DNA of 64,000 bases from Ferruginibacter sp. (GTDB lineage Bacteria > Bacteroidota > Bacteroidia > Chitinophagales > Chitinophagaceae): assembly GCA_031408295.1 (NCBI GenBank), contig JANNVW010000103.1, positions 9,270 through 73,269 on the forward strand, read 5' to 3'. Positions within the stretch are counted from its first letter, which is position 1. Each line of letters starts with the position of its first letter. The translations under genes and the position numbers were made by a program. Of the stretch, positions 3,883-24,226 are shown piece by piece. Under the pieces are notes generated by a model that saw only the letters and a list, made by a program, of their open reading frames with translations, was not told the origin of the DNA and ran no database searches.

Positions 3883-3886
3883 TATT

Positions 3887-9745: not shown

Positions 9746-10082
9746 AATGCACCAACGCATCTTTAAAAAGTGTGGCAGTTACGTTTACATTACCATTTTC
9801 TTCAATGGCATATTTTAGTGTAGCAGATATTATATTATTTTCCACGGGGTTTATAATGGCAAGAAATTTTATTTCGCTAGAAGATATGAGATTGGTTTTT
9901 TTTGCCAATACTTGTTCCATTATTTCTTTCACCATTTGCATAATGCAAACACCTGGCACTACTGGCTGGCCAGGAAAATGCCCTTCAAATATTTTATGCG
10001 CTACGTTTATTGTTAGCTCAGCTTTTACATCAGCGTCTACAGCTTCTAAATTATTTATTTCAAAAAAATTATCTTGTAACAT
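9714..10082 (-). CDS. 3-hydroxyacyl-ACP dehydratase (FabZ/FabA-like hot-dog fold)
   Basis: Motif HFPGQPVVPGV. 122 aa. Its 3' end overlaps the antiporter 3' end by 32 nt (convergent). Confidence 0.75.
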   Translation of the reverse strand: MLQDNFFEINNLEAVDADVKAELTINVAHKIFEGHFPGQPVVPGVCIMQMVKEIMEQVLAKKTNLISSSEIKFLAIINPVENNIISATLKYAIEENGNVNVTATLFKDALVHFKMKAVLAVL

Positions 10083-10696
10083 TATCTTTCTATACGTTTA
10101 AGCCCTATGGTAAAATTAAATGTTTTGTGTTGTATGTCTATTGTATCTGGTATTCCATTTATGTAATTGTGCATGGTTGCTTCTACTACTGTTTTTCTTT
10201 TAGATGCCCTTTCCATTCGTATAAGGTTGTCGCCAGTACTATCTGTTATGTAAAAATTATAACCCTTCTGCTGCGGAAAAATATAATACATTAAACCATC
10301 TTTAGTTCGCACAGACACCTCTTTGTTTTCTAAATGTTCCATCAATATTAATTCAAAATCTTTCCTAAGCGTTTTTAAAACAGACTTTTTGTTCATTTGT
10401 TTTATAATGGAATACACTTTAAAATCGCCATTAGGTGCAAATTCAAAATCAAAAAACTTAAAACCTATTTCATTAGAAAAGACCATCCTTGTACTGCTAT
10501 CGGGCATTTTTTTTATAATCAGCAAACCACTCAGGTGATTACCCACAACATCTACTTTTGTGTTGTACAATGCTACTGTAAAGTTAGGTTTAAACTTTGC
10601 CAGCACCGCAGCATTGCCAGCACCAACCTGCATTTTTTTATAAGCAGGCGAGCAACTAATAATGAATAAGCAACTACTTAATAAAAAATAACGCAT
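10082..10696 (-). CDS. hypothetical lipoprotein (pigment-cluster associated)
   Basis: ATG at 10696 gives MRYFLLSSCLFIISC, a lipobox-like signal. The start could also be 10711. Confidence 0.5.
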   Translation of the reverse strand: MRYFLLSSCLFIISCSPAYKKMQVGAGNAAVLAKFKPNFTVALYNTKVDVVGNHLSGLLIIKKMPDSSTRMVFSNEIGFKFFDFEFAPNGDFKVYSIIKQMNKKSVLKTLRKDFELILMEHLENKEVSVRTKDGLMYYIFPQQKGYNFYITDSTGDNLIRMERASKRKTVVEATMHNYINGIPDTIDIQHKTFNFTIGLKRIER

Positions 10697-11309
10697 CGGC
10701 AATGGTAGCATTTAATTCTTTGTTGGTAAATCGTAAAATGGTATTGTCGCCAGATTGTTCTTGCATTTGAATGCTGGTAACAGAAAAGTCTTTTTTATCT
10801 ACCACTACATTTATTAACTTAAATAATTCTTTTAGCCCCTTTGTAACAGGTGTTAGTTCTACCAACGAAGTATTTTTATTTTCAAATACCCGTGTTTGAA
10901 AATTTGGGTTGTTAAGTGCTGTACCTTGCATACAGTCTATCATTATTTGATTAATCTGTTTGAACATTTTATTGGACTTTGTAGAAACTTTATTTTCTTT
11001 TTGTCCATCTTTTACAAAAACTTTATCCTTATTCAATATCATCAAATACAAAAATGGCTGTGTGTACTCCATACGCACTTGGCTTTCTTTTTTATACCAA
11101 AACTTACCTTTAGATACAATTTTTTCTGAAAGCATACTCAGGTTTTTTTCCTGCGTAAAATCACTTTTTATGGAAGTCGTTTTTTGTGTAGCAGCTGCAA
11201 AAGCGAGCTTAAATTTAGCAAAATCTGCAATGGCTGTATAGCCTGCATATTGTGCATTTGATGTAGCTGCAGTAGCAACTATTATTAGTATTAAAAATAT
11301 TTTACGCAT
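10674..11309 (-). CDS. LolA-like outer-membrane lipoprotein carrier family protein
   Basis: Signal peptide MRKIFLILIIVATAATSNAQ, about 210 aa. Position and size match the LolA-like genes of aryl-polyene/flexirubin clusters. Confidence 0.55.
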   Translation of the reverse strand: MRKIFLILIIVATAATSNAQYAGYTAIADFAKFKLAFAAATQKTTSIKSDFTQEKNLSMLSEKIVSKGKFWYKKESQVRMEYTQPFLYLMILNKDKVFVKDGQKENKVSTKSNKMFKQINQIMIDCMQGTALNNPNFQTRVFENKNTSLVELTPVTKGLKELFKLINVVVDKKDFSVTSIQMQEQSGDNTILRFTNKELNATIADALFFIK

Positions 11310-12075
11310 AAGGGGACAAATGTAATAATTTATCTAATGGGATAATGGTATAGCCCCTATTTTTAACTTCTTGTATAAAAGTTGTAAGGCTGTCTACTGT
11401 GGTTTTGCTGGTGTCATGAAAAAGAAATACAGCGCCAGGTTTTATTCCTCTATTAATTTTTTGCAACAATTTATTTTCGTCTTTTATTACCGTATCCATA
11501 GAGCGTACACTCCAGCCTATGGGTATGTAGCCACCATTTACAATAGATTTTTTTACATTAGGATTGGTAACACCATAAGGAGGCCTAAACAACTTCGGTT
11601 TTATGCCCAACACTTTCTCCATCTCGTTATCCATCATTTTTAAATCAGCAAGCATTTTTTTAGGGGGTAACATATCAAACCAAAAACTGTGAGAATAGCT
11701 GTGGTTGCCTATAATATGCCCATCAGCTTTTATTTGTTTCAAAATTTCTTCATTGCCTGCAATGCGATTGCCAATGCAAAAAAAAGTAGCAGGTACGTTT
11801 TGTTGTTTTAATAAACTTAAAATTTCTGCTGTGTGTTCTATAGCTGGGCCATCATCAAAACTTATGGCTATTTCTTTTTTATCTGTTTTAGCAGAACAAA
11901 CAATGGGTATAAAAAAATTAGAGCCTACAAAATAACAACCATAAAAAACGATTAAAGAATACACAATAAATGCCAATGCATAAAAATAAAATGGCAAGCC
12001 ATATTTAATATTTATCAAAACTAGCAATGCTGCCAAACAAACAAAAGCAATATTTGTATTTTTAAAATTTAGCAT
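11302..12075 (-). CDS. polysaccharide deacetylase (NodB homology domain) family protein
   Basis: Two N-terminal TM helices, then NodB motifs FDDGP and HSYSH, and RPPYG. Confidence 0.8.
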   Translation of the reverse strand: MLNFKNTNIAFVCLAALLVLINIKYGLPFYFYALAFIVYSLIVFYGCYFVGSNFFIPIVCSAKTDKKEIAISFDDGPAIEHTAEILSLLKQQNVPATFFCIGNRIAGNEEILKQIKADGHIIGNHSYSHSFWFDMLPPKKMLADLKMMDNEMEKVLGIKPKLFRPPYGVTNPNVKKSIVNGGYIPIGWSVRSMDTVIKDENKLLQKINRGIKPGAVFLFHDTSKTTVDSLTTFIQEVKNRGYTIIPLDKLLHLSPYA

Positions 12076-13127
12076 GCTGATATCAATAGCAAAGAGTGGT
12101 GAATATTTTGATAATGATTGTATATTAAAATCTTATTTATTTTTTTTTGTATTTTAATATTTGCTTGTACAGTTGCTGGTATTGTGTTGTACCTTATTAT
12201 ATTTGCACCCAACCATAGTGCAAATGCTGTAGATGTGGGATACTCCCCACACAAGTTTTTATAATTAGCTGTATTACTATTGGTAAAAGTATGCTGAGTT
12301 AGTTCATCATATATTTTATCTCCTGCGGCATCTCCATTCTTTCCCACAATAATCAAATCAATATCATTAACGCTTAGGGCATGCAAAACCAAAAACTTTT
12401 CAACCTGTTCAGTAATATCTGCCATATTATTAGGCTTATAAAAAGTATGCAAGCCATCTAGTTTTGCATAATCATTTTCAGAATGCTCATTTGCCAATAA
12501 AAAAAATGCGGCACCTTCACCAGCAATTGTTCCCTTAGCGTTAGTTTTATATAATTCGTTGTTGGCTATTGGGGTTTGTTTGTAAAGCCCCATTCTATTT
12601 AAAATAGTGTGGCTCACATTTGTAATTTCATCTATGGCACCAACCAATACATTTTGCACTTCATTTTCTTTTAACAGCATCATACCATCTAGCAAGGCAC
12701 TTTCAAAAGAAAAGCCACGGTGTACAAAGGCATTGTTATAATTATTGCATTGCAACATCAACCCTATTTGTGCGCCAATGGTATTATGGGTAGATTGTAT
12801 GAATGCTGTAGGGGTGAGCGTTTCCTCATTATACTCTACCATTTTTGTTATAAAAGAAACGGTATCTTCTAAGCAGCCATAAGCAGTGCCCGTAACAATG
12901 GCATCTGGTTTAGTAACCTCAGCTTCTTGCAAACATTCCATAGCTGCAGCCACACCCATTTTTATAATGCGGCTCATGCGGCGTATTAATTTTGCATCTA
13001 TAAAATCTTTGTAATCGGGTTCTATGCATGCAAGTCTGTTACCAGTATATGATACAACTTCCTCAAGAAAAGCTTGATGACCAAAACTGTTTTGAGGTGA
13101 TATATTTCCCGTAGCTCTTATGTACAT
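12069..13127 (-). CDS. KS-related protein lacking the catalytic Cys (chain-length-factor-like)
   Basis: Paralog of 3887-4924. ATG at 13125-13127 sits 6 nt downstream of a relic KS stop codon (13134-13136). Confidence 0.7.
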   Translation of the reverse strand: MYIRATGNISPQNSFGHQAFLEEVVSYTGNRLACIEPDYKDFIDAKLIRRMSRIIKMGVAAAMECLQEAEVTKPDAIVTGTAYGCLEDTVSFITKMVEYNEETLTPTAFIQSTHNTIGAQIGLMLQCNNYNNAFVHRGFSFESALLDGMMLLKENEVQNVLVGAIDEITNVSHTILNRMGLYKQTPIANNELYKTNAKGTIAGEGAAFFLLANEHSENDYAKLDGLHTFYKPNNMADITEQVEKFLVLHALSVNDIDLIIVGKNGDAAGDKIYDELTQHTFTNSNTANYKNLCGEYPTSTAFALWLGANIIRYNTIPATVQANIKIQKKINKILIYNHYQNIHHSLLLISAC

Positions 13128-13131
13128 AGTA

Positions 13132-13187
13132 ACTTATACTTTTGAAAAAATAAGTGATGAGCAATTTCCACCAAAACCAAATGAGTT
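13132..13187. repeat. 56-bp direct repeat, left copy (relic 3' end of a KS gene)
   Basis: 55/56 identical to 18631-18686 (single A/G difference at 13170 vs 18669). The reverse complement encodes NSFGFGGNCSSLIFSKV*. Confidence 0.9.
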
Positions 13188-13579
13188 ATTCTATTACTGA
13201 TAATGCGATAGCAACTGTAACGAATATTTTCATTATTACTAAGTATCGTTTTATAATGTGTAATTTTGGCTAGAACATTCCTCGAATAAATTCTCTCGAA
13301 TCCTCAAATTCGATTTTTAAAAACTGCAACTGTAGTTTCATTCGAAGGTACTATAATATTTTTCTAATTATTTTATGGAGAGGCTAAAAAAATTATTAAG
13401 CCAGGTTTTTATAATAAAGACAGCATTACAACGATGTGTGATTGAGGCTTATTCAAAAAGGGAGTAAAAAGTAGTCCAATGAATTAAAAGTTACAATATT
13501 TTTCAAATTATTTGTAAATGTCGATTTAGTGCCAAAGTGAGCGTAGTGTAAGAATATTTTAAAAAAAATCTTGCAACTG

Positions 13580-14029
13580 CTACAATCCCTCAACATTAAG
13601 ATGCTGAATAATACAATTGCCTAAAAAAATTGCTTTAGTGTTATTCCACTCAGTACCGAAATCCAAAATACCTCCTTTTTTTAAGTATGCCTTTGGTACT
13701 AATTTGGGTGTAACAAATTTAATAATAATGGCAGGGTTTTTTTTGCCTTGTAAATTACCTAATGTCACTTTAGTTATAGTATTAAAATATAAAACAATTT
13801 CCTTCACTTTTAATGTATCAGGTCTATTAGGTAAAGGAGGTTCCATTAAATAACCTTTAACACTTAATTTTAATCGAGCTAGTAGAAAATTTAGCTTTTT
13901 TCCAGCATACTCTGTTTTTTTTGCTTCGATACTATCTCTTAAATATGCTAATGTGTCTGTAATTACTGTCTGAGCAAATACATTGTTTGCACAAAAAACG
14001 ATTGAGATGCAGATGATTATTTTTTTCAT
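13580..14029 (-). CDS. small secreted hypothetical protein
   Basis: ATG at 14029 gives signal peptide MKKIIICISIVFCANNVFAQ. It is the last gene of the island operon. Confidence 0.5.
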   Translation of the reverse strand: MKKIIICISIVFCANNVFAQTVITDTLAYLRDSIEAKKTEYAGKKLNFLLARLKLSVKGYLMEPPLPNRPDTLKVKEIVLYFNTITKVTLGNLQGKKNPAIIIKFVTPKLVPKAYLKKGGILDFGTEWNNTKAIFLGNCIIQHLNVEGL

Positions 14030-14034
14030 AATTT

Positions 14035-14631
14035 TTATTGTTCGCAAATAGTTATTACTATTTCTATTGCTGTACCAGATGAATCATAAATAATTTTATA
14101 GTTCAATTCTTTAAACTGTCCATTCATTCGTTTATAATATTTTACACCAGCATTTAGGTTAGCACCTGTAAATAAAACATTCGCAAAAGCTTCTATGTCT
14201 TCTCTTGGGTAATGCTTAATTTCAAAAAAATACTTTACCCATCCTAACCATGTTAGATATAAAGATACACCATTTGAAAATTTAAAGGTCTTACTCCAGT
14301 TATTATTGAATGGAGGTGCTTGCACAGCACTATCTCTAGGAATGACAGTAGATAAATGATTAGCTTTGGCGGTATCGTCTACCATAATAGCCCACTCAGT
14401 GCTGTCGTGTGCAAAAACATAATCTGCACTAAAATTTGGATTTGCTGCTAGCCCATCTATTAAATGATAAATATCTAGTGGGCTAGGAGCGTTAGCAGCT
14501 CCAGTACTGTCGGTAGAACCTTTATTATGAGTGTGAATGCAGAATCGAATATTTTGGCCCGGATAGCTGGTTAAAATGAATTCCAAGTAATATACAAAAC
14601 CATCTATTATTGAGTAGATGATTTTAAACAT
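14035..14631 (-). CDS. hypothetical protein with JAB/MPN-like HxH...SxxD motif; paralog of the C-terminal domain of 15084-16580
   Basis: IHTHN...APSPLDIY motif with an upstream Glu (YYLEF). Collinear similarity to residues ~315-498 of the neighbouring protein (AIMVDDTAKA/AIVVTDTSAA; HYP...GVK...NGxFKEL). No signal peptide. Confidence 0.45.
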   Translation of the reverse strand: MFKIIYSIIDGFVYYLEFILTSYPGQNIRFCIHTHNKGSTDSTGAANAPSPLDIYHLIDGLAANPNFSADYVFAHDSTEWAIMVDDTAKANHLSTVIPRDSAVQAPPFNNNWSKTFKFSNGVSLYLTWLGWVKYFFEIKHYPREDIEAFANVLFTGANLNAGVKYYKRMNGQFKELNYKIIYDSSGTAIEIVITICEQ

Positions 14632-14658
14632 AATATTGAAATATAATGTATAAAAAAG

Positions 14659-15072
14659 CTAATACTTTTTTATATTCGTTACAATTTGAGTACCTAGTTC
14701 TAATTTCATTTTATTATCCCATGCTTGATATTTTAGTCTATAATACTCTGGTACGCTAACAACATATTTGTTTACTATTTCAATTTCAAAACCTCTTGTT
14801 GGTATTCCAATAAAATTTGGTAACGTTATGTAAAATCTTTTATAAAATGAAGTGCCATATCTTTTTCTACCCAAGTGATCAGGGGTACTAAAATTTATTG
14901 GCAAATTAATATCATTAATTAATTTTGATAGAGGGAAATTAATATAATTAGCTCTCAAATTATAGAGGCTATCAACTTTTTTCCTATTTATAGAATCTAT
15001 TTGACTAAGCGTTTGGGCTTGTATGCTACTACTAATTATAGCGAAAATTATTATACTATATATATATTTCAT
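14659..15072 (-). CDS. small secreted hypothetical protein
   Basis: Signal peptide MKYIYSIIIFAIISSSIQAQ. Very AT-rich. Confidence 0.5.
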   Translation of the reverse strand: MKYIYSIIIFAIISSSIQAQTLSQIDSINRKKVDSLYNLRANYINFPLSKLINDINLPINFSTPDHLGRKRYGTSFYKRFYITLPNFIGIPTRGFEIEIVNKYVVSVPEYYRLKYQAWDNKMKLELGTQIVTNIKKY

Positions 15073-15083
15073 TTAATATTTTT

Positions 15084-16580
15084 TTATAAACAAATTTTAA
15101 TTTTTAAATCTTGCAAAACATTATTAGTATCCCTTATTATTAAGGGTGAAAGTTCTTTAAATATACCATTTATTTTAATCATTATTTTTACACCCATATT
15201 GTATCGCTGTATCATATAGACTTGAGCATAAGTACGTAATAATATTTCTGGGTAATGGTTTAATCTTAATTTATTAAACGCATTTTCAAATTCTTTTTCC
15301 ATACTCAATGAATCCTGTCCAAAGATACCATAAAAATTTCCCCAAGTTGGGTTTACGGGTCGCCTTAAAGTGTCGCCAGTGGTAGGATTTATAATTATAG
15401 CAGTATCGCTATAATATATGGCAGAGTCTTTTGGATATAGGTTGTTAAAAAGTAGCGCTGCGGAGGTATCTGTAACTACAATAGCCAAATCTGTACCAGC
15501 TAGAGCACTCACAATAAATGACCGATATAGTTTTTTATTTACTAGTAACCTTGCTAAAGTAAGTGTGTATATATCACCATTGTCAGGTTGTGGATCTCCA
15601 TAGTCGTTGTGGGTATGCGCAAAGGCTACAATATTTTTATGATTGGGGCCTGTGCTGGTATCAAAAATGGTAATTTGGGAGGATATAAGTGTACTATTTA
15701 AAGCTGTATCTTTAAATACCTTATAGTGACCAGCACTATCAAAAGTAGAAATTGCATGTTCTACACCGTCATGCACTCCATTTCTTAGCACAATCATTCT
15801 TGGCTGAGTGTTTAAACTATCTATTATTTGTGTTGTTTTATTGCTATTTGCTATGGCTATTGTATCACATATAACAGGTTTTGGCTTCACAGTATCGCAA
15901 GGGACAATAAGAGTATTACCCCCTGCACAGGCATGGCATCCATCCGCATAAGCAGTACCACCTAGTACATTATTACAATCTCTTGTGCAGGGTAATTTAC
16001 CAGTAGTTCCGCCCACACATATATTGCAACTATCCAAATATGCGGCTCCACCTAAAACTCCAGCACAATCTGGTGGCGGTGGCACATAACAAGGCAATAA
16101 GCCTGTAGTACCTCCAACGCAAGTACTGCACTGGTCATAAAAAGCATTGCCACCCATTACTCCAGCACAATCTTCAAAATTTGGGTCTGGTAAATCATCG
16201 GGTAAATTAATTGGCCAATTGGGATGAAAATTACCTCCTCCAGTTGAGTTACCATAATGAGTAGCTCCGCTTGGTGGGTTTAAAGCATTCGCACCTGTTA
16301 GCATACTATATAACAATGCTTGATTTATCCCCCCACTTTCAGGTCCACCACCTCCCCCTTGCCCCATGGCATTGATAGTATCTTGAATAAAACCACCTAC
16401 AGCTTTTATAACTCTGGCTAACCATTCCCACAAAGATTCTCTTTCGGCACAAACTCCAGGATCTGTATAACACTCTGTTTGTGCATATACGTTTTGGCTA
16501 GTCTCTATCACTAAATTGCCACTTTTAAAAGTTGGCACTAATCCAATAAAAAATACGAGTAATAAAAATATTTTCTTCAT
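15084..16580 (-). CDS. secreted multidomain protein: Gly-rich linker, three Cys-rich repeats, C-terminal JAB/MPN-like domain
   Basis: Signal peptide. Repeats CAGVMGGNAFYDQCSTCVGGTTGLLPC / CAGVLGGAAYLDSCNICVGGTTGKLPC / CNNVLGGTAYADGCHACAGGNTLIVPC (15897-16172). Motif AFAHTHNDYGDPQPDNGDIY around 15586-15620. Confidence 0.5.
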   Translation of the reverse strand: MKKIFLLLVFFIGLVPTFKSGNLVIETSQNVYAQTECYTDPGVCAERESLWEWLARVIKAVGGFIQDTINAMGQGGGGGPESGGINQALLYSMLTGANALNPPSGATHYGNSTGGGNFHPNWPINLPDDLPDPNFEDCAGVMGGNAFYDQCSTCVGGTTGLLPCYVPPPPDCAGVLGGAAYLDSCNICVGGTTGKLPCTRDCNNVLGGTAYADGCHACAGGNTLIVPCDTVKPKPVICDTIAIANSNKTTQIIDSLNTQPRMIVLRNGVHDGVEHAISTFDSAGHYKVFKDTALNSTLISSQITIFDTSTGPNHKNIVAFAHTHNDYGDPQPDNGDIYTLTLARLLVNKKLYRSFIVSALAGTDLAIVVTDTSAALLFNNLYPKDSAIYYSDTAIIINPTTGDTLRRPVNPTWGNFYGIFGQDSLSMEKEFENAFNKLRLNHYPEILLRTYAQVYMIQRYNMGVKIMIKINGIFKELSPLIIRDTNNVLQDLKIKICL

Positions 16581-16599
16581 GTTGCTCTTTTATAGCAGA

Positions 16600-18072
16600 T
16601 TATAGTTTAATTACTTTTAGAGTTTTATGTTGATTGCCAGACTTTAGATCAACAATGTATATGCCAGCATTTAAATTTTGATTTACTTTAAGCGGCAAAG
16701 TATAAAAGCCAGTTTCCGACAATGTGCTTGTATTTGTGTAAACTGTTTTACCTTCTGTAGTCCTTAGAGATGTAATAATTTTTGCAGGTTGCTTTAGTTC
16801 AAAATCTATTGTAATAATATTTGTAAAAGGGTTTGGATAAGCTTTTAATGTATTGGGTACAAAAATACTTCCATCGTCTTTTGTTATATCTACCCATTCG
16901 TTTCTATCGGCAATCTTTTTATACTTTACAAGGCTTAAATATTGAGGTTTGTATGGCTCTTTTAGTTCTGGCAAATACATTTGTATATTGCCTACAATAT
17001 AAATACTATCATTGAGTTTTGTCTGTTGCAATTTTGCGCTTTCAAACTGCATAAGCACTGGGCTATTATAACTATAATGCGTTTTTTGATAATATGCTGT
17101 TTTTGTAAAAACAATAGAATGGGGTGTTATGGTAGCTTGAAATGGAATTGCTAAAGTGTCAGATTGTATCCAAACACCGGAAAGTATTCCGTTTTTATGC
17201 AAAATTGTTAATTCAATTGCAGTCGAATCTATTATATTTTTACCACTCCAATCGTAAGTAATAATGTAACCTTTGTAAATCCCTTCAATTTCTGTTTCAG
17301 ATAACTTATGTTCAATCTTTTGATAGGTATTTAAATTAGATTTACTCGTATATGCAGGTGGTTGAATTGCTTTTGCAGTAGAACTAGGTTCATTATTTTC
17401 TCCGTTGTCATTTATTGTTCTCAACTCTTGCTTGGCAGAAAAATCTCCTCTTTGGCTAGCTTGTTTCAACCAATATTTTGCGCTATCTATATTTTTTGCT
17501 ACTCCATAGCCATTACGTAATGCAATACCTAAAAAGTACATACTTTTCCTATTATCGCCTCTGGTTGCTTTAGCTTCTTTTGCAAATAAGCTCACTGCTT
17601 GTTTATAATCTTGTTTGCAACCTAGTCCTTTGAATAACATATAGGCTTGGTTATACTCACACAAGGCATTGCCAGCTAATGTGCCAATGGCAAAATATTG
17701 AAAAGATTTAAAAAAATCTTGTTCACTTTTGCTAGTATTTTTGTACAGCATTCCCAAATGAAACCAAGCATTTGTATTACCCTCTTTAGCAGCTTTTAAA
17801 AACCAAATAGTAGCCTTTGTAATATTTTTGGTTGTGCCCTTGCCGTCTCTATACATTAAGCCTACCATCTGCATAGCTTGGTGTTTACCAAGTTTTGCGC
17901 ATTCTAAATAAAGCTTAAATGCCTCCTCCTCATTATACGACCCATTTTTATTGCTTAAATATTTTTGGGCAGCATACATTTTAGTATTAATAATAGAGTC
18001 AATAGCACTTATTTGTTGAGCACTCAATGAAGGTGAGAACAGTAGTAAAAAAGAAATAAAGGCTATTTTCAT
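16600..18072 (-). CDS. Sel1-like repeat protein with T9SS C-terminal sorting domain
   Basis: Signal peptide. SLR repeats (e.g. AFKLYLECAKLGKHQAMQMVGLMYRDGKGTTKNITKATIWFLKAAKEGN). C-terminal ~80 aa KAYPNPFTNIITIDFEL...GIYIVDLKSGNQHKTLKVIKL fit the Por_Secre_tail pattern. Confidence 0.75.
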   Translation of the reverse strand: MKIAFISFLLLFSPSLSAQQISAIDSIINTKMYAAQKYLSNKNGSYNEEEAFKLYLECAKLGKHQAMQMVGLMYRDGKGTTKNITKATIWFLKAAKEGNTNAWFHLGMLYKNTSKSEQDFFKSFQYFAIGTLAGNALCEYNQAYMLFKGLGCKQDYKQAVSLFAKEAKATRGDNRKSMYFLGIALRNGYGVAKNIDSAKYWLKQASQRGDFSAKQELRTINDNGENNEPSSTAKAIQPPAYTSKSNLNTYQKIEHKLSETEIEGIYKGYIITYDWSGKNIIDSTAIELTILHKNGILSGVWIQSDTLAIPFQATITPHSIVFTKTAYYQKTHYSYNSPVLMQFESAKLQQTKLNDSIYIVGNIQMYLPELKEPYKPQYLSLVKYKKIADRNEWVDITKDDGSIFVPNTLKAYPNPFTNIITIDFELKQPAKIITSLRTTEGKTVYTNTSTLSETGFYTLPLKVNQNLNAGIYIVDLKSGNQHKTLKVIKL

Positions 18073-18168
18073 AATTTGTAATTATATATTTACCAATAGT
18101 AATACTTATTTTTATGTGTGGTAACATTTACAACACATTTTTTATGGGTTTTTTGTACATTATTTATG

Positions 18169-18176
18169 ATACATTT
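18169..18176 (+). promoter_or_regulatory. candidate Bacteroidota -7 box (TAnnTTTG)
   Basis: TACATTTG lies 16 nt upstream of the ATG at 18192. Confidence 0.3.
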
Positions 18177-18191
18177 GAAAAAAATATAACA

Positions 18192-18593
18192 ATGCACTAT
18201 CCAAAAATTGAGTTTTTGAGAAGAGTTAAAGGATTTACTCAACAGAAAATGTCCATTGAGTTAGAAATGGATCAAGCAGAATACCAAAGAGTAGAAAGTG
18301 GGCAAAGAAACAACATCGAAGATTCACTGCTATCAAGAATTGCTTTGGTATTGGGTACTACTAAGGAAGAATTAGCTAGCCCACAGCCTTATATTTTTTA
18401 TGTGAATAATAGTGATACTGCATCTAAGAATAATGCACCTTTTGGAAACCAAGAATTTCATAACGACAACGCAGAACTTATGAAAATTTTAAAAACCAAT
18501 ATGGAACAGCTAAATAGGCTAATAGAAAATAACCAGCGATTAATAGAAGCAAATTTGGAATTGATTTCTAAATTCACAAATGTGGCTAAATGA
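18192..18593 (+). CDS. XRE-family helix-turn-helix transcriptional regulator
   Basis: LRRVKGFTQQKMSIELEMDQAEYQRVESGQRN is an HTH_3-type motif. Divergent from the island operon. The track ORF start at 18114 is less likely. Confidence 0.7.
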   Translation: MHYPKIEFLRRVKGFTQQKMSIELEMDQAEYQRVESGQRNNIEDSLLSRIALVLGTTKEELASPQPYIFYVNNSDTASKNNAPFGNQEFHNDNAELMKILKTNMEQLNRLIENNQRLIEANLELISKFTNVAK

Positions 18594-18630
18594 TTAAATA
18601 TTGGTTTGAGAAATAAGTAATTTGTAAGTT

Positions 18631-18686
18631 ACTTATACTTTTGAAAAAATAAGTGATGAGCAATTTCCGCCAAAACCAAATGAGTT
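18631..18686. repeat. 56-bp direct repeat, right copy (functional 3' end of the KS gene)
   Basis: See 13132-13187. Confidence 0.9.
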
Positions 18687-19832
18687 GGAGAGTACATGTT
18701 TTACGTTAGCATTTTCGATGATTGATTGTACTGGTACAAATGGCAAATCCTTCATAGGTGTTTGCAAACGTAGGTTAGGAAAAATAATATTGTGCTGCAT
18801 AGAGAGTAGCGAAATAACAGCTTCTAACCCCCCACATGCACCAAGTGTATGACCAGTGTAAGCTTTGGTAGAACTCATTTTAGGATACTGCCCATCAAAC
18901 AAGCGCTTAATAGCTGTACCTTCTGCTATATCGTTATTTTGTGTGCCGGTACCATGTAAATTTATGTAATCGATATCGCTGGGTTGTAAGCCACTTTTTT
19001 TTAGTGCTCCACTCATAGCCAAGTAAGAGCCTACACCATCTGGTGAAGATGCTGTTTGATGGTATGCATCGTTGGCATTGCAATAACCACTTAAAATAGC
19101 TTTAGGTATTTTACTTAAAGTAGCGGCTACTTTTTCTGATACCAATACTATATAACCTGCGCCCTCACCAAGGTTTAGTCCTCTGCGGTTTTCATCAAAT
19201 GGTTGGCAAAATTGCTCATCCAATATCATGAGGGTATTAAAACCATTGAGGGTAAATTTTGTCATGGCATCTGCACCGCCTGCAACTACTACATCTAGTA
19301 TATTATTTTTGATAAGCCTAGCGCCATAAAAAATAGAATTGGCAGAGGAAGAGCAAGCAGTGCTAATGGTAGTTATATAATCTTTAATACCGAGCTTGTC
19401 TGCTACAAGTTCTGTAACAGCACCGCACTCATGGTTCACTACATTGCGTAGTTTACCCTTTGCGTCATCTGCAAGAAAAGTTGTATAGAAATTTTCAGAC
19501 TTATCCATTCCACCGACAGAATTAGCAGAAACAAAACCAGTACGCAAGCTGTCCAAATTTTCTATACCTGCATCAGCCAATGCTTCTTTAGCAGCTACCA
19601 AACTTAATAGAGCTGTTCTGCTTTTTATGTCTTCTAACCCAGAAAGTAAGCCAAGCTCTTCATTGGTTAGTTTAACTTCTGCTACAGGCAGCCTGTTTTT
19701 ATGCAAGGAGTTCAGGTAATGCATATTCCCCATTCCTATCTTTTCGTTTTTGAGTGCATCAAAACACTCGGCAACATTATTGCCAATGGAAGAAATTGCC
19801 CCTAGGCCTGCCACAAAAACTTGTTCACTCAT
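18633..19832 (-). CDS. beta-ketoacyl-ACP synthase (FabF/KS-alpha like)
   Basis: Active-site Cys in STACSSSANSI, plus HGTGT and GHTLGACG. Paralog of 2662-3882. Confidence 0.9.
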   Translation of the reverse strand: MSEQVFVAGLGAISSIGNNVAECFDALKNEKIGMGNMHYLNSLHKNRLPVAEVKLTNEELGLLSGLEDIKSRTALLSLVAAKEALADAGIENLDSLRTGFVSANSVGGMDKSENFYTTFLADDAKGKLRNVVNHECGAVTELVADKLGIKDYITTISTACSSSANSIFYGARLIKNNILDVVVAGGADAMTKFTLNGFNTLMILDEQFCQPFDENRRGLNLGEGAGYIVLVSEKVAATLSKIPKAILSGYCNANDAYHQTASSPDGVGSYLAMSGALKKSGLQPSDIDYINLHGTGTQNNDIAEGTAIKRLFDGQYPKMSSTKAYTGHTLGACGGLEAVISLLSMQHNIIFPNLRLQTPMKDLPFVPVQSIIENANVKHVLSNSFGFGGNCSSLIFSKV

Positions 19833-19835
19833 TGT

Positions 19836-20099
19836 TTATGCATTATTAAATTGATGCGCCGTAATATATTCGGCCATCGTTCTTACTGTTTTAAAAACTT
19901 TCGGGCCTTCATCTGCATTAGAAAGTTTTATTTTATACTGTTGTTGTAAGAGCACAATCAACTCTAGTGCATCTATAGAATCTAGACCAAGGCCTTCCAT
20001 AAAAAGAGGCTCATCATCTGCAATATCTTCAGGTTTTAAATCCTGTAAATTTAGTTGGGCAATAATCTGCTCTTTCAGATTTGCTATTAACTTATCCAT
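19836..20099 (-). CDS. acyl carrier protein
   Basis: 87 aa with LGLDSIDALELI motif. Paralog of 2421-2684. Confidence 0.85.
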   Translation of the reverse strand: MDKLIANLKEQIIAQLNLQDLKPEDIADDEPLFMEGLGLDSIDALELIVLLQQQYKIKLSNADEGPKVFKTVRTMAEYITAHQFNNA

Positions 20100-20724
20100 T
20101 AGCTTTCAGGTATATTTTATTTATGTTTTCTGGGGTAAATGGAATTCCATCGCCCATTTTTTCTTTTTCTATTAAAAACAATACGGTCTTATATTCATCT
20201 TGCACATATTCTACCCAGCCACAAATACAAGCCTGCAAGATATTATTATTAATTAAGTTACTCACATATTGGCCTATAAATTCTGCATCAAATTCTTCAC
20301 ATATAAAAAAAGCGTTCTCTCCTTTAAATTGATGCCTTATACATATCTCACCAATTACTATATTTGGTAATGTATAAACGAAAAGTGCTGGGCTAGGGAT
20401 GTTTTTTGTTGTTTCTATATATTTTATATCAGTATCTAAACTTGCATTTGCATTAGAAAATACTACAGCTACATCTTCGGGTTTGTATTTGTTTACTATA
20501 AAACTGTCTTTTAATAATAATTCAGTAGCTAGCCAACCCAGTTTACTTAGGTTATCCATTTTGTAAAACTTTGGATATTTTATTCCAAAATTTTGATAAA
20601 CAGAAACTAAAAAATCTGAAACTGCTACATCTTTGTTCTCAAAAATGAGCCCGTCATTCTTATAAACCTCACGATTGCTAATAATACAACTAGCCGAAAT
20701 GTAGTTTTCTATACTTGCCATCAT
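20092..20724 (-). CDS. conserved hypothetical protein of the pigment cluster
   Basis: 210 aa ORF overlapping both neighbours by 4-8 nt (operon). No motif recognised. Confidence 0.4.
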   Translation of the reverse strand: MMASIENYISASCIISNREVYKNDGLIFENKDVAVSDFLVSVYQNFGIKYPKFYKMDNLSKLGWLATELLLKDSFIVNKYKPEDVAVVFSNANASLDTDIKYIETTKNIPSPALFVYTLPNIVIGEICIRHQFKGENAFFICEEFDAEFIGQYVSNLINNNILQACICGWVEYVQDEYKTVLFLIEKEKMGDGIPFTPENINKIYLKANG

Positions 20725-21977
20725 ACTATATCTTCTGCTAATATTTTTCCAATTTCAATAAGCCTTGCTAGTTTCTTTACCTCTTTTGCACTATCCTTCA
20801 CAAATGGATTGTTAGTGTCCCAAACATAACCTGCCAATACAGAACAAATCATATTTTTTTTCACGAGGTCAGGGGTTTCGGCAAAGAAAATAGTATCCAA
20901 AGTGCCATCATACCAAGTTTCTACATAGGTTCTAAATGTATCTATACCCTTCATCATAGGCTCGGTGTATTGGCTTTCCCAATCTACGTCTTCCCCATTT
21001 AATTTTTTAATTACTAAATTGGCAGCCATTTGGCTCGAAACTGTTGCCAGTGTTACCCCCGAAGAAAAAACAGGGTCCAAAAATTCAGTAACATTGCCAG
21101 TCAGTACATACCCATCTCCATAAAATTTATCGCTTGTAGCCGACCAAGACTCTTTTGTCATTGGCTCAAAAACAAATTCAACATCTTTCATTCTTTCACA
21201 TAAATAAGGCTCTGATTCCAACAAAGCCCTAAGCTGAACTTCAGTATTTCCCAACTCATCAAATGGTTTAAAAAATGAAGGGTCTCCTACAAAACCCACA
21301 GAGGTTATACCATTTGAAAATGGAATAACCCAAATCCATATTCCTTTTTGATGCACAATAATGGTAATGCGATCTGGCTCATCATCCATGGTACGCTTTG
21401 TATCTACCACATGGGCAAAAATAGTTTTTCGGCTTGCAAGGTTACTAGGTTTGTCTAAATTAAACATACTTGGTATTACCCTGCCATATCCACTTCCATC
21501 TACAATAAATCTAGCTTTTATTTGTGTTGTGTTACCTTCTTTATCTGTAATGGTAGTCACTGAGTTTGACCCATTAAATTCAATACCTGTTACTGTTGTT
21601 TCATAACTAACTGGCACGCCCATTTGTTCTACCGCATCTGCAAGCGTTTTATCAAATTCTGCCCTAGGTACTTGCCATGTCCAATCATAACCAGAGGTAA
21701 ACTTATCTGCAAAAAAATAATCGCACACTGCTCCATTTTTTACAAACTTAGCACCATATTTTTTTTGAAATCCTTTAGCTTTTACGGCATTTAAAAATCC
21801 TGCTTCTTCTAACGCTTCCATACAGCGGGGTAGCAAGCTTTCACCAATTACAAAGCGAGGGAATTTTAATTTTTCTACAATTTTTACTTTAAACCCAGCT
21901 TTATTTATAATAGAAGCAGCTACTGAACCTGCGGGCCCGGCACCAATTACGAGTACATCTACGTTTTCGGTTTTCAT
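20721..21977 (-). CDS. flavin-dependent halogenase-like FAD oxidoreductase
   Basis: GxGxxG (VIGAGPAGS) plus WIWVIP (the WxWxIP signature) at 21321-21338. Confidence 0.7.
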   Translation of the reverse strand: MKTENVDVLVIGAGPAGSVAASIINKAGFKVKIVEKLKFPRFVIGESLLPRCMEALEEAGFLNAVKAKGFQKKYGAKFVKNGAVCDYFFADKFTSGYDWTWQVPRAEFDKTLADAVEQMGVPVSYETTVTGIEFNGSNSVTTITDKEGNTTQIKARFIVDGSGYGRVIPSMFNLDKPSNLASRKTIFAHVVDTKRTMDDEPDRITIIVHQKGIWIWVIPFSNGITSVGFVGDPSFFKPFDELGNTEVQLRALLESEPYLCERMKDVEFVFEPMTKESWSATSDKFYGDGYVLTGNVTEFLDPVFSSGVTLATVSSQMAANLVIKKLNGEDVDWESQYTEPMMKGIDTFRTYVETWYDGTLDTIFFAETPDLVKKNMICSVLAGYVWDTNNPFVKDSAKEVKKLARLIEIGKILAEDIV

Positions 21978-23053
21978 TGCTTGTTTATTATTTTAGTACA
22001 TTTAATTAATGTTTGGCTTAAGCCTATATTATCTATTTGTTCTACTATTTTAAAATTAGCCTCTTCAATACACTTAATAAAAGTTTCTGCGCTATACATT
22101 TGACTATTTCCATTGGCTACAGCAGTAAAATATAACGACGTTTGTTGTAAACAAAATGCGGCTGTTTCAAATTTTTGTTTATCCCAAAATGGCTCCATTA
22201 TAATTATTTGCCCATTTTCATCAAGCGCATCGTAGCACCTATTTAGTATAGACACAATTTCAGCTTCAGAAAAACAATCCAAAAATTGGCTCATCCAAAT
22301 AGCATCAAACCCTGTTGGAAGTTTTACGGTTTCATCCAAAATGTTAGCCTCCAAAAACGAAATCCTATCATTTAACCCAAGCGCAGTAATTTTTTCCTTT
22401 GCTACATTTAACTGCCCAGGCAAATCAATCATAGTAACGTGTATATCTGCCGAATAATTTACAGAAGCCGTAGCCCATTTACCTGTATTACCGCCTATTT
22501 CTAATATTTTCTTAATGCCATTTGAGTATACTTTTGGTAATACCCGGTGAAAAGCATCATCCGAAAAATAATGGTCAAAATCAAACCAACTTTTTTGAAC
22601 ATGCTTAGGTAAAGACGAAAGACCCTCATACACGGTTTCCCATTCTCCAAATTCCTTTAACCCAACTGGTTTGCCCGTTTTTATACTTTCCTCAAGATAA
22701 AAAAGCCCCTTGTAATTTACATCATGCACAAAATCCATATTTACCCTTGTTAAAGGGTCGTGCAAAATATAATGACCCACTTTACCAATTGTATACCTCC
22801 CGTCATTCACAAGTACTAATCCAAGTCCCAATCCTGACTCTAATAATACCCTTACTCCATATAAAGATAGCTTTACTTTTTCAGATATTTCACTTATGAT
22901 TAATCCCGTAGTTCCACTTTGTTCAATTTCGTCAAGTATGCCGGTGTTTCTAAGCACCCTTGCTGCTTGAAAAATTGCTGGACCAAAAGCAATCCATTGC
23001 GCTATATCAATCGCTTCAAAAGCAGTGTTCTTTTCTGTAGAGAAAAAATTCAT
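21974..23053 (-). CDS. class I SAM-dependent O-methyltransferase
   Basis: Motif I ILEIGGNTGKW. N-terminal dimerisation/winged-helix-like region. 359 aa. Confidence 0.75.
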   Translation of the reverse strand: MNFFSTEKNTAFEAIDIAQWIAFGPAIFQAARVLRNTGILDEIEQSGTTGLIISEISEKVKLSLYGVRVLLESGLGLGLVLVNDGRYTIGKVGHYILHDPLTRVNMDFVHDVNYKGLFYLEESIKTGKPVGLKEFGEWETVYEGLSSLPKHVQKSWFDFDHYFSDDAFHRVLPKVYSNGIKKILEIGGNTGKWATASVNYSADIHVTMIDLPGQLNVAKEKITALGLNDRISFLEANILDETVKLPTGFDAIWMSQFLDCFSEAEIVSILNRCYDALDENGQIIIMEPFWDKQKFETAAFCLQQTSLYFTAVANGNSQMYSAETFIKCIEEANFKIVEQIDNIGLSQTLIKCTKIINKQ

Positions 23054-23086
23054 TATTATGTTATTTAATAGTTCTAGTTAATTATT

Positions 23087-24226
23087 TTATTGTTTACCAA
23101 AGATAAGTGCTGCATTGCAGCCTCCAAAACCAGAAGCTGTTTTTAAACAATTTCTTAGGCTGGTTTTTTGCAAGCTACTACAAATGTTTATGGGTTCTGT
23201 TACACCTATATTTTCAAACCCCTTGGTGGGTATTATTATATTTTCTTTTAAAGAATGAATAGCTATAATAGCTTCTATAACACCCGCTGCACCAAGTGTA
23301 TGGCCATAATAACCTTTCAAACTATTGGTAGGTACATGTTGCATATTGGCTAGTGTAATGGCTTTAGCCTCCATTTCATCGTTGTAAATAGTAGCAGTGC
23401 CATGTGCCGAAATAAAATCAACATCATTTGGAGAAAATAGTTTTGCTTCCTTCATGGCTTTAGTGATAGCAATATTAAGCTCCTCACCAGTACGAGATGG
23501 GCCAGAAATATGGTTGGCATCGTTACTAACAGAGCCTCCCATTATTTTTATATCTTGAGAAGTTTTTTTATTAGCCGAAAGAATAATAGTAGCAGCACCT
23601 TCGCCTAAATTTATACCATTTCTATTGGCATCAAAAGGTTTGCAAGGGTTTTCGCTAATGGCATTAAAAGATTGAAAGCCTGACAATACAAATTTTGAAA
23701 TGGCATCTGCCCCAGCCACAACTACATTATCATACTGTCCAGCTTGTATTAAACGCATACCAGTTAATATAGCCAGTAAGCCAGATATACAGGCATTGGA
23801 AACCACAATGGGTTTGCTTACAAATTTAAAATGTGAGGCTATCAAATTTGCAGAGCTACTTAAAGAAATTTTTTGTTGTAAACTGGGACTATACGTTTCC
23901 GTTTCTAACAAACCAATATTGCCTTTGGTAGAAGAAACGACAAGCCCTGTTTTTTTATCCGAAACATTTATACTACTATTTTCTAACGCTTTACTTATGG
24001 ACGCAATTAGTATTTTTTCAAATTTTGTAAAATTATTATTCAAGCTATTCAATAAAAAATGTTCATCTCCATTAAACAATGCACTATAAAAAGGCACTGC
24101 GGACATGCTTGCATTGCTATGCATTTTTATACCTGATACATTATTTTGTACCTGCAAAAAATTTTCTGCACTGTTACTACCTATTGGCGATAAAATATTG
24201 TCTGAAATAATAAAAACATCTTTCAT
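23087..24226 (-). CDS. beta-ketoacyl-ACP synthase (third KS)
   Basis: Active-site Cys in SNACISGLLAI, plus HGTAT, GHTLGAAG and SGFGGCNA. Confidence 0.85.
   Translation of the reverse strand: MKDVFIISDNILSPIGSNSAENFLQVQNNVSGIKMHSNASMSAVPFYSALFNGDEHFLLNSLNNNFTKFEKILIASISKALENSSINVSDKKTGLVVSSTKGNIGLLETETYSPSLQQKISLSSSANLIASHFKFVSKPIVVSNACISGLLAILTGMRLIQAGQYDNVVVAGADAISKFVLSGFQSFNAISENPCKPFDANRNGINLGEGAATIILSANKKTSQDIKIMGGSVSNDANHISGPSRTGEELNIAITKAMKEAKLFSPNDVDFISAHGTATIYNDEMEAKAITLANMQHVPTNSLKGYYGHTLGAAGVIEAIIAIHSLKENIIIPTKGFENIGVTEPINICSSLQKTSLRNCLKTASGFGGCNAALIFGKQ

Follow-up and report, generated by a model that had tools for sequence, protein, structure and literature searches.

A probable polymorphic toxin-immunity locus with a Sel1-repeat, type IX sorting-domain partner inside a pigment gene cluster of Ferruginibacter sp.

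The secretion system of type IX (T9SS) is the main protein-export route of Bacteroidota. In the contact-dependent inhibition (CDI; CdiA-CT/CdiI) and Rhs systems, 5′-truncated tip cassettes with their own immunity genes lie downstream of the full toxin gene and the pairs are exchanged between lineages, and colicins and pyocins, which are considered here by analogy only, are composed of a disordered Gly-rich N-terminus, a middle domain and a C-terminal killing domain. A role of T9SS in bacterial warfare has so far only been hypothesised, in the case of TANFOR toxins, whose T9SS dependence was proposed from the nearby enrichment of T9SS substrates (PMC7073777). In the maf islands of Neisseria, MafB depends on MafA for its passage across the outer membrane (PMC7738311), and the constant N-domain of MafB has been proposed to interact with surface MafA (PMC3482391). 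Among the toxins with JAB domains, Tox-JAB-1 occurs only in Bacteroidetes and depends on Sec; its immunity protein, Imm65, is an exported lipoprotein, which was called unusual (PMC3482391). Here, we describe a block of six genes at positions 13580–18593 of a 64,000-nucleotide (nt) stretch of Ferruginibacter sp. DNA (contig JANNVW010000103.1, positions 9,270–73,269 of the forward strand), which is called the window and whose numbering is used throughout. The block is explained as a small mobile polymorphic toxin-immunity locus, a reading that we consider probable when taken whole with its mechanism; as judged from sequence comparisons, its nature as a toxin-immunity locus with an orphan module is highly probable.

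The list of open reading frames (ORFs) gave five genes on the minus strand, namely the Sel1/T9SS gene (16600–18072; 490 amino acids, aa), the gene of the putative toxin (15084–16580; 498 aa), a candidate immunity gene for subtype-A tips (14659–15072; 137 aa), an orphan toxin-tip cassette (14035–14631; 198 aa) and a candidate immunity gene for subtype-B tips (13580–14029; 149 aa), and a divergent XRE-type helix-turn-helix (HTH) gene on the plus strand (18114–18593; 159 aa as its longest ORF). The gaps between consecutive minus-strand genes are 19, 11, 27 and 5 nt. This five-gene operon with its gaps and divergent gene had been reported by an earlier reading of the letters alone, referred to as the original prediction, and its coordinates were confirmed except at the last gene, which had been taken as 155 aa. 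That length belongs to a TTG-started version that would overlap the 198-aa gene by 13 nt, whereas the 5-nt gap implies a start at the ATG at 14029 and a protein of 149 aa, with which an independent gene call on a public contig agrees. Signal peptides were found in four of the five operon proteins, the exception being the 198-aa protein. Scans of Pfam, NCBIfam and PADLOC assigned no family to the four proteins other than the 490-aa Sel1 protein, and a match to well-characterised housekeeping families, which would have spoken against the original prediction, was seen for none of the operon proteins.

The features by which polymorphic toxins are recognised were found in this locus and its relatives: a constant leader joined to swapped tips, a downstream gene matched to the tip, and orphan cassettes and immunity arrays. 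The leader of the 498-aa protein (residues 1–137; nt 16170–16580) contains a signal peptide, a conserved beta-hairpin (residues 14–27), the residues “AQ”, a helix at residues 50–72 and a Gly-rich disordered stretch; in the full-length model, residues 33–123 had a predicted local distance difference test score (pLDDT) below 50, and disorder was predicted except for one helix. It is followed by three Cys-rich repeats at residues 138–159, 172–193 and 202–223 (region 138–223; nt 15912–16169) with consensus C-x-[GN]-V-x-GG-x-A-[FY]-x-D-x-C-x-x-C-x-GG-x-T, in agreement with the repeats noticed originally. The repeat unit of about 30 residues (DCxGVxGGxAYxDxCxxCVGGxTGxxPC) has no Pfam model; it is found again in Bacteroidota and Fibrobacter, in many secreted proteins that often have T9SS sorting domains too, namely pectinesterases, GH43 enzymes, esterases and lysyl-oxidase-like proteins. 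A word-indexed protein search yielded few full-length relatives of the 498-aa protein, and the same search with the leader alignment returned no matches, probably because this profile is short and low in complexity. The alignments of the proteins encoded at related loci (numbered L002 and so on) showed a shared leader of the form MKKIxLLxxFF..P....G.I.I...Q...AQ, a Cys, an FWxWL helix and a Gly/acidic stretch, and this same leader carries JAB tips of subtypes A, B and C, a GH19-like domain or other C-termini. Two proteins (P0020 and P0059) have the same leader and Cys repeat but a GH19 endolysin-like C-terminus (PDB 8xcl, 3.6e-13; PWe2 endolysin, 2.4e-12; Pfam GH19, 6e-4), and in L009 and L011 the gene downstream of the Sel1 gene has only the leader in common.

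An all-against-all comparison resolved the JAB tips into three subtypes and revealed that the small signal-peptide protein encoded directly downstream changes with the subtype. The subtype-A tips of the window toxin (498 aa), L088 and L090 are followed by W_137, L088_137 and L090_143; the subtype-B tips of L002, L005 and the 198-aa orphan of the window by L002_147, L005_149a/b and W_149; the subtype-C tips of L007 and L091 by L007_177, L091_185 and L091_203; and the GH19 tip of L008 by L008_158 and L008_147. The 137-aa protein of the window, whose signal peptide ends in …SSIQA before QT, is 71–76% identical to the 137-aa product encoded after P0002 (L088) and 35% identical to the 143-aa product encoded after P0003 (L090), and it matched none of the small proteins encoded after subtype-B, subtype-C or GH19 tips and no Pfam or NCBIfam family. 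Because its family changes with the toxin tip, the downstream small protein is taken as the immunity protein, and the 137-aa protein is thus the putative cognate immunity protein that would neutralise subtype-A tips. The modules have diverged to different degrees. The window and L088 are 30–31% identical in the Sel1 protein and 30% in the leader, against 66% in the tip and 71–76% in the immunity protein, whereas L090 and L007 are 62% identical in the Sel1 protein and 53% in the leader, against 22% in the tip and 23% in the immunity protein. Over 28 pairs, the Pearson correlation of identities was 0.88 for tip and immunity protein, 0.67 for Sel1 protein and leader, and −0.04 for Sel1 protein and tip. 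Leader and tip identities are decoupled, as would be expected of modules exchanged between lineages. A role of the Sel1 protein itself as an immunity factor, as known for Sel1 proteins of Klebsiella, was considered and rejected for want of co-variation with the tip. Immunity arrays were present in metagenomic loci with four copies (L128, L129 and L133), three copies (L122) or two copies (L137), orphan tips were also found in L133, L098 and L149, and L005 contains a 64-aa tip fragment and a duplicate immunity gene. The immunity proteins have no Pfam family, no match to Imm65 and no lipobox. In two loci of unrelated subtypes, the immunity gene is followed by a DUF922 (PF06037) gene (L007, 9917–10621; L090, 5336–6031).

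The last two genes of the operon have the composition of an orphan module. The 198-aa protein is paralogous to the C-terminal 180 residues of the 498-aa protein (27% identity, E 5e-10 to ~1e-8), and its closer kinship to subtype B, which had been predicted ahead of the comparison, came out as expected, with 39–42% identity to the C-termini of L002_482 and L005_481 (E ~1e-31). This protein (P0086) spans positions 69–239 of the 240-position tip profile, has no signal peptide and no leader, and retains H33-x-H35...S50-x-x-D53 without the region of the catalytic Glu. As it covers only this part and lacks the leader and the catalytic Glu, it is best described as an orphan toxin-tip cassette. The paralogy and the missing signal peptide noticed in the original prediction were thus reproduced, while the domain turned out to be truncated, and the idea of a cytoplasmic JAB paralogue acting as partner of the exported enzyme gave way to that of an orphan tip with an immunity gene of its own. 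The 149-aa protein, whose signal peptide ends in …NNVFA before QT, is 40–42% identical to the products of the small genes directly after the subtype-B toxins of L002 and L005 (E 1e-31 to 1e-34), which makes it a likely immunity protein for subtype-B tips, cognate to the orphan cassette. Mutual paralogy of the 137-aa and 149-aa proteins was rejected since their match was at chance level (E 0.046). The small exported proteins, proposed earlier simply as partners of the large one, are indeed predicted to be exported but fall in two distinct immunity families, each tied to one tip subtype. The 149-aa protein would protect the cell against subtype-B toxins of its neighbours, and the truncated tip could be a spare cassette for tip replacement.

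The constant component of the locus is the 490-aa protein, in which the Sel1 repeats and the T9SS sorting domain seen originally both scored above the curated cut-offs. It contains, all on the minus strand, Sel1 repeats at about residues 55–215 (nt 17428–17910; PF08238 in three stretches, E 1.3e-20, 73.5 bits, cut-off 30.7), a beta-rich, family-specific middle domain at about residues 250–410 (nt 16843–17325) with the motifs YDWSG and NEPxKP, and a T9SS type-A sorting domain at residues 412–489 (nt 16603–16839; Por_Secre_tail PF18962, 8.2e-8, 32.9 bits, cut-off 27; TIGR04183, 1.8e-8, 34.2 bits, cut-off 23). Its signal peptide, read by inspection as MKIAFISFLLLFSPSLSA followed by QQ, together with the sorting domain gives the features of a T9SS type-A cargo. 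The Sel1/T9SS gene lies directly upstream of the toxin gene in 10 of 10 close loci, with 37–47% identity of the Sel1 protein to that of the window in most of them and 30–31% in L088, and these ten loci lie in otherwise unrelated surroundings (among others RecQ/UvrA, ClpB and capsule genes). When GTDB species representatives were scanned by peptide pattern with the full Sel1 alignment, the result was swamped by generic Sel1 proteins and only three full-length relatives were obtained, all from metagenome-assembled genomes (MAGs) of Chitinophagales/Chitinophagaceae; the word-indexed search with the middle domain returned two proteins only. A pattern scan of metagenomes with the middle-domain motif YDWSG[QK][NYH]xI gave 65 loci, and a co-directional gene followed within 300 nt in 55 of the 60 loci with a complete 3′ end, the gap being usually −4 to 40 nt. 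Signal peptides were apparent in 46 of these 55 following genes, and 36 of them are succeeded by a small ORF that itself looks signal-peptide-bearing in 28 cases. The products of these following genes contain recognised toxin domains and others, such as Tox-MPTase2 (2e-19), class-3 lipase (Lipase_3, 1e-6), RHS repeat, DUF5977 and a C39-like peptidase, and 9 of 10 diverse distant members of the Sel1 family have both Sel1 repeats and Por_Secre_tail. Co-occurrence of the genes in other genomes had been named as a test of the original prediction, and the recurrence of the gene order in 10 close and 55 of 60 metagenomic loci makes the window locus one member of a broad, apparently undescribed locus family.

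The surroundings of the Sel1/T9SS gene vary among these loci. In five related loci, an orthologous Wzy_C/O-antigen-ligase-like membrane protein (36–52% identity) is encoded just upstream of it (L007, 3734–5581; L008, 4652–6507, split; L009, 65–1534; L090, 2–1171; L091, 4750–6522); the copy in L009 has by eye a TPR-like C-terminus, a conserved gene of about 300 aa stands between the Wzy_C-like and Sel1 genes in L007 and L090, and the window island has no Wzy_C-like gene. Such a neighbour may be a hint that glycans are attached to the exported proteins. In L011, from a Chitinophagaceae MAG, the region upstream of the Sel1 gene (3307–6272) encodes a secreted 664-aa protein with CDP/NYD-type Cys-rich repeats and then two paralogous signal-peptide proteins (164 and 152 aa, 45% identical), which looks like a second toxin/immunity set. 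In L134–L136, the Sel1/T9SS gene is followed by a gene for a 168-aa Cys-rich protein with the same leader and then by one for an 878-aa protein, possibly a variant with a split toxin. L135 is a contig of a human-gut metagenome, so that the locus family reaches gut Bacteroidota.

On these grounds, and by analogy with MafA and MafB, the Sel1 protein is put forward tentatively as the T9SS export or display partner of the toxin. The toxin would leave the cytoplasm by Sec, the Sel1 repeats of the upstream protein would bind its constant leader in the periplasm, and the Sel1 protein would then take it through the outer membrane, or display it beyond, via T9SS, in parallel with the role of MafA for MafB. 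As in colicin-like bacteriocins, the Gly-rich disordered leader and the Cys-rich repeats may have a part in translocation and in binding to a receptor. A more general proposal, to which we give slightly less credence, is that the proteins with Sel1 repeats, middle domain and sorting domain are dedicated T9SS adaptors for Sec toxins, and that they constitute a widespread, hitherto unrecognised T9SS-dependent weapon against other bacteria with exchangeable envelope payloads, among them the JAB tip as a periplasmic peptidoglycan or envelope isopeptidase. The alternative that survives best, though we think it rather unlikely, accepts the toxin-immunity locus and denies the Sel1 protein the part of an export adaptor: the toxin would exit via outer-membrane vesicles, lysis or another route, and the Sel1 protein would be a separately secreted surface factor that serves in adhesion or target recognition, as an activator or as a broad shield of the surface. 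The standard Sec signal of the toxin without a sorting domain would fit such an exit, Sel1-repeat proteins have many roles, reportedly including T6SS (type VI secretion system) immunity in Klebsiella (PMC7108748), and the poor conservation of the leader in the wider family weakens the case for a specific leader-Sel1 interaction. It is opposed by the strict adjacency of the two genes, with gaps of −4 to about 40 nt in close and distant loci alike whatever the toxin domain, and by the MafA/MafB precedent of an accessory export protein encoded upstream; furthermore, divergence of the Sel1 protein follows the leader and not the tip or immunity protein, which argues against an immunity role.

The C-terminal domain of the 498-aa protein (residues 238–498; nt 15087–15869) is JAB/JAMM-like and of subtype A. 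Its motif reads E274...H322-x-H324...D333-x-x-D336, with a spacing that by inspection is one residue longer than in the canonical JAMM. A model of residues 238–498 built on 11 homologues reached a predicted TM-score (pTM) of 0.81, and a Foldseek search of the PDB returned at the top mostly JAB/MPN/JAMM proteins (CSN5, Rpn11, AMSH, BRCC36 and RadC, 2qlc) with probability up to 1.0; the viral library likewise gave RadC, JAB and MPN proteins. An exhaustive profile search retrieved 905 JAB-tip clusters at 50% identity, 608 of them at E up to 1e-10, and in the best 150 proteins listed, which have about 110–630 aa, the domain lies at the C-terminus or close to it. In 158 representatives, the motif columns were close to invariant among the aligned residues (E 150/150, H 152/152, H 151/152, S or D 152/153 and D 153/153). 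The JAB-like domain of the original prediction is thus borne out by fold and motif, though not by Pfam or NCBIfam, and we regard the tip as JAB/JAMM at the level of fold and motif only, with metallopeptidase activity predicted. The first and the second-to-last residues of the tip are a conserved Cys pair, C238 (nt 15867–15869) and C497 (nt 15090–15092), which suggests a disulfide closing the exchangeable domain and is consistent with an extracytoplasmic location. The C-terminal Cys is retained even by the GH19-type relatives. The tip family (P0094–P0225) is also found on other N-termini, such as lipoprotein-type leaders (…SC[RK]…) and a third type of leader (…LTQ[LVI]TTD…NFNW), and is thus shared among several delivery contexts.

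As for its target, the toxins most likely act in the envelope or periplasm, because a signal peptide is present in all the immunity proteins and a peptidoglycan hydrolase is one of the alternative tips; the muramidase-like, lipase and metallopeptidase character of the alternative tips leads to the same view. We slightly favour an envelope-acting peptidase over a nuclease for the JAB tip, which would then cleave peptide or isopeptide bonds, either in peptidoglycan or in an envelope protein. The opposite has been proposed by Zhang et al (2012), who argued that the JAB clades of toxins are similar to RadC and are possibly nucleases, not peptidases (PMC3482391), and RadC (2qlc) is indeed among the structural matches obtained here. 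On this proposal, the tip would be a nuclease-type toxin of the target cytoplasm and the exported small proteins would give protection by preventing its uptake. We consider this improbable, since signal peptides occur in 4 of 4 immunity families of the close loci and in most of the distant loci, the tips with which the JAB domain is interchangeable are envelope-directed, and the full JAMM motif is invariant including the catalytic Glu.

Less probable still is that the proteins are secreted housekeeping or nutritional enzymes, engaged in remodelling of the wall or surface or in digestion of prey or polymers, which a strain-variable island would encode along with periplasmic inhibitors or chaperones. 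Chitinophagales are known polymer degraders, many secreted glycoside hydrolases and esterases, several of them with T9SS sorting domains, also have the Cys-rich repeats, and the Wzy_C/O-antigen-ligase-like genes stand upstream in five related loci, all of which would suit such enzymes. This explanation is contradicted by the swapping of tips, the tip-specific downstream genes, the truncated orphan tips and the multi-copy immunity arrays, which are hallmarks of conflict systems, and by the finding of Tox-MPTase2, a curated polymorphic-toxin domain, and RHS repeats at the same genomic position. Of the two functions suggested in the original prediction, an effector/immunity module is therefore supported by the co-variation of tip and immunity protein and the orphan cassettes, and a surface-modification module is not.

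The block is a 5,499-bp insertion between two 60-nt direct repeats that are identical at 58 of 60 positions and spaced 5499 nt. The right copy (18627–18686) holds the true 3′ end of the ketoacyl-synthase gene (18633–19832, minus strand), that is its last 17 codons and stop, and the left copy (13128–13187) is a pseudo-3′-end of that gene, directly upstream of the next cluster gene (12069–13127, minus strand). Both copies translate to NSFGFGGNCSSLIFSKV and a stop, the final 17 codons of the ketoacyl synthase, and the gene has therefore been left intact: the insertion restored its 3′ end, as an att site would. It separates the ketoacyl synthase from its partner gene (12069–13127) and thereby splits a ketoacyl-synthase/chain-length-factor (KS/CLF) pair. 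The host locus (10082–13127 and 18633–24226) is a pigment cluster of the flexirubin/aryl-polyene type with genes for two ketoacyl synthases, a chain-length-factor-like KS, an acyl carrier protein, a flavin adenine dinucleotide (FAD) halogenase, an O-methyltransferase, a LolA-like protein and a polysaccharide deacetylase. The tail of the insertion (13188–13579) is non-coding, with no recognisable gene or RNA: its longest ORFs are of at most 47 aa, it had no Rfam match at E up to 1, and the Rfam scan across the whole island gave nothing. A scan for sigma-70 promoters and terminators, with a tool that does not cover Bacteroidota promoters, did not exceed the shuffled expectation. The island-free “empty site” was not found by exact look-ups of the flanking proteins, which gave no record or contigs ending inside the ketoacyl-synthase gene. 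Two Logan contigs, which are independent assemblies of this cluster (L158, SRR20217191; L159, SRR20217180), both stop 597 nt into the ketoacyl-synthase gene, and this shared end point suggests a repeat or a strain-variable breakpoint. In a public assembly, the block is a separate 5,521-bp contig with its ends inside the repeats, most simply an assembly break at the repeat.

The divergent gene kept its position as originally described, whereas its XRE/HTH domain scored below the Pfam gathering score (HTH_31, 1e-4, 23.0 bits, cut-off 27; HTH_3, 4.6e-4, 20.6 bits, cut-off 23). Other matches were RstR-like (7.5e-6) and PADLOC HTH/capH-like, and all three libraries place a short HTH at residues 31–88. 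The probable start of the protein is the ATG at 18192, with which it would have 133 aa; TAcaTTTG, a −7 promoter motif of the Bacteroidota type, stands at 18171–18178, 13 nt upstream of this ATG, and such a start would leave a divergent intergenic region of 119 nt. The neighbouring genes of eight related loci that were compared contained no homologue of the gene, and it appears to be specific to the island. An anti-phage defence or toxin-antitoxin module under an XRE regulator, to which the insertion and the divergent HTH gene with its weak defence-associated matches (capH, “control protein”) might point, is scarcely credible and was rejected, since the Pfam, NCBIfam and PADLOC scans of the six proteins matched only Sel1, the sorting domain and a weak HTH, PADLOC gave only a chance-level match among the five operon proteins, four of these five carry signal peptides, and the HTH gene is missing from the related loci compared.

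Several observations weigh against the explanation of the block as a mobile toxin-immunity locus with T9SS-assisted export. All functions were deduced from sequence, and the signal peptides were called by inspection and a crude rule, with no trained predictor. With regard to mobility, the ORF list and Pfam scan showed no integrase or recombinase gene between the repeats and the G+C content of the island (0.321) barely differs from that of the flanks (0.335–0.345), so that it is the direct repeats that speak for it. With regard to export, the toxin has no T9SS sorting-domain match in Pfam or NCBIfam, its C-terminus being the JAB domain that ends in ...KICL; the leader profile (hidden Markov model) detected 21 of the 55 downstream genes in the wider family, which is loose conservation; a physical link between toxin and Sel1 protein is a proposal as tentative as the partnership itself; and the presence of T9SS in this genome is implied solely by the sorting domain. 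With regard to the tip, the Foldseek scores against the PDB were modest (E 1e-4 to 1e-2, TM 0.25–0.47 over a core of about 110–140 residues), no JAB, Prok-JAB, RadC or Tox-JAB match was found in Pfam for the window proteins at E up to 1 or for ten distant members at E up to 0.1, and the tip profile had no significant match among PDB sequences, for which reason the fold had to come from structure prediction; the nuclease proposal discussed above counts here as well. The orphan tip lacks the catalytic Glu and has little DNA identity to the main gene, which makes a use as recombination cassette a tentative proposal.

The locus family offers a compact, testable case of T9SS in bacterial warfare, with a constant sorting-domain protein strictly beside Sec toxins that lack such a domain. 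Should the partner be an adaptor, it would represent a new way of recruiting T9SS substrates and a new class of antagonism in environmental and gut/rumen Bacteroidota, and the weapon would be widespread in soil, freshwater, rumen and human gut. Independent of export, the analysis has brought out a large JAB/JAMM-like family with an invariant catalytic motif and no Pfam match as well as several new immunity families, and the export of the immunity proteins speaks for a target in the envelope and thereby challenges the nuclease suggestion for toxin JAB domains. The island is also an example of a weapon cassette placed inside a pigment biosynthesis cluster without disrupting it.

In its organisation, the locus resembles most the Neisseria maf islands (MafA-MafB-MafI; PMC4287609, PMC7738311), which have an upstream exported accessory protein, a Sec toxin with a constant N- and a variable C-terminus, an immunity gene next to it and then orphan tip/immunity (MafB-CT/MafI) cassettes, the whole being carried by a genomic island. 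It is a resemblance of organisation alone, since no match to MafA or to the MafB N-domain (DUF1020) was found in Pfam or NCBIfam. In the present locus, which is from the phylum Bacteroidota, a Sel1 protein with T9SS sorting domain takes the place of the outer-membrane lipoprotein as accessory protein, and the immunity proteins are exported. Tox-JAB-1/Imm65 and Tox-JAB-2 (DUF4329) share with the locus C-terminal toxin domains of JAB fold with the E, HxH, S, D motif. The domain studied here differs from them in having about 240 residues with the conserved terminal Cys pair and in belonging to the large unannotated family described above, and it showed no significant match to PF15659 or PF14220, the best being DUF4329, which one of 13 members matched at E 0.056. 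RHS repeats are absent from the window toxin and the immunity proteins are unlike Imm65, so that by Pfam neither sequence membership of the PF15659/PF14220 class nor its association with RHS or with Imm65 or Imm-NTF2-2 immunity was found.

The TANFOR-domain toxins (PMC7073777) likewise belong to Bacteroidota, carry a Sec signal and lack a sorting domain. Those toxins are large, with nuclease tips (BaCT) behind a defined TANFOR N-domain, while those of the present family have about 400–500 aa, a short disordered leader, a single strictly adjacent partner of Sel1, middle and sorting domains, predicted envelope tips and exported immunity proteins. The truncated tip and immunity gene downstream of the full toxin are an arrangement shared with the orphan modules of CDI and Rhs systems. 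The locus differs from these in containing no type V secretion system (T5SS), T6SS or RHS machinery, and at its leader-tip junction VENN, PxxxxDPxGL or a similar conserved motif for recombination was not seen, only a conserved Cys-Asp at the start of the domain. The periplasm-acting T6SS effectors (Tae/Tge/Tle) with their immunity proteins (Tai/Tgi/Tli) are similar in joining envelope-degrading activities (muramidase, peptidase, lipase), predicted in the present case, to signal-peptide-bearing immunity, and the succession of Gly-rich leader, middle region and C-terminal tip in the toxin is like that of colicins and pyocins; the locus differs from the T6SS effectors in having no T6SS genes and from colicins in that no Tol/Ton box was identified. 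The novelty claimed in the original prediction, a composition known from no described system, thus holds in part: the locus fits the class of polymorphic toxins, including Tox-JAB-1/Imm65 (PMC3482391), and a literature search found no description of three of its features, the partner with Sel1 repeats and T9SS sorting domain, the leader region and this JAB clade. By sequence, the locus appears to belong to the known polymorphic toxin class as an apparently undescribed branch.

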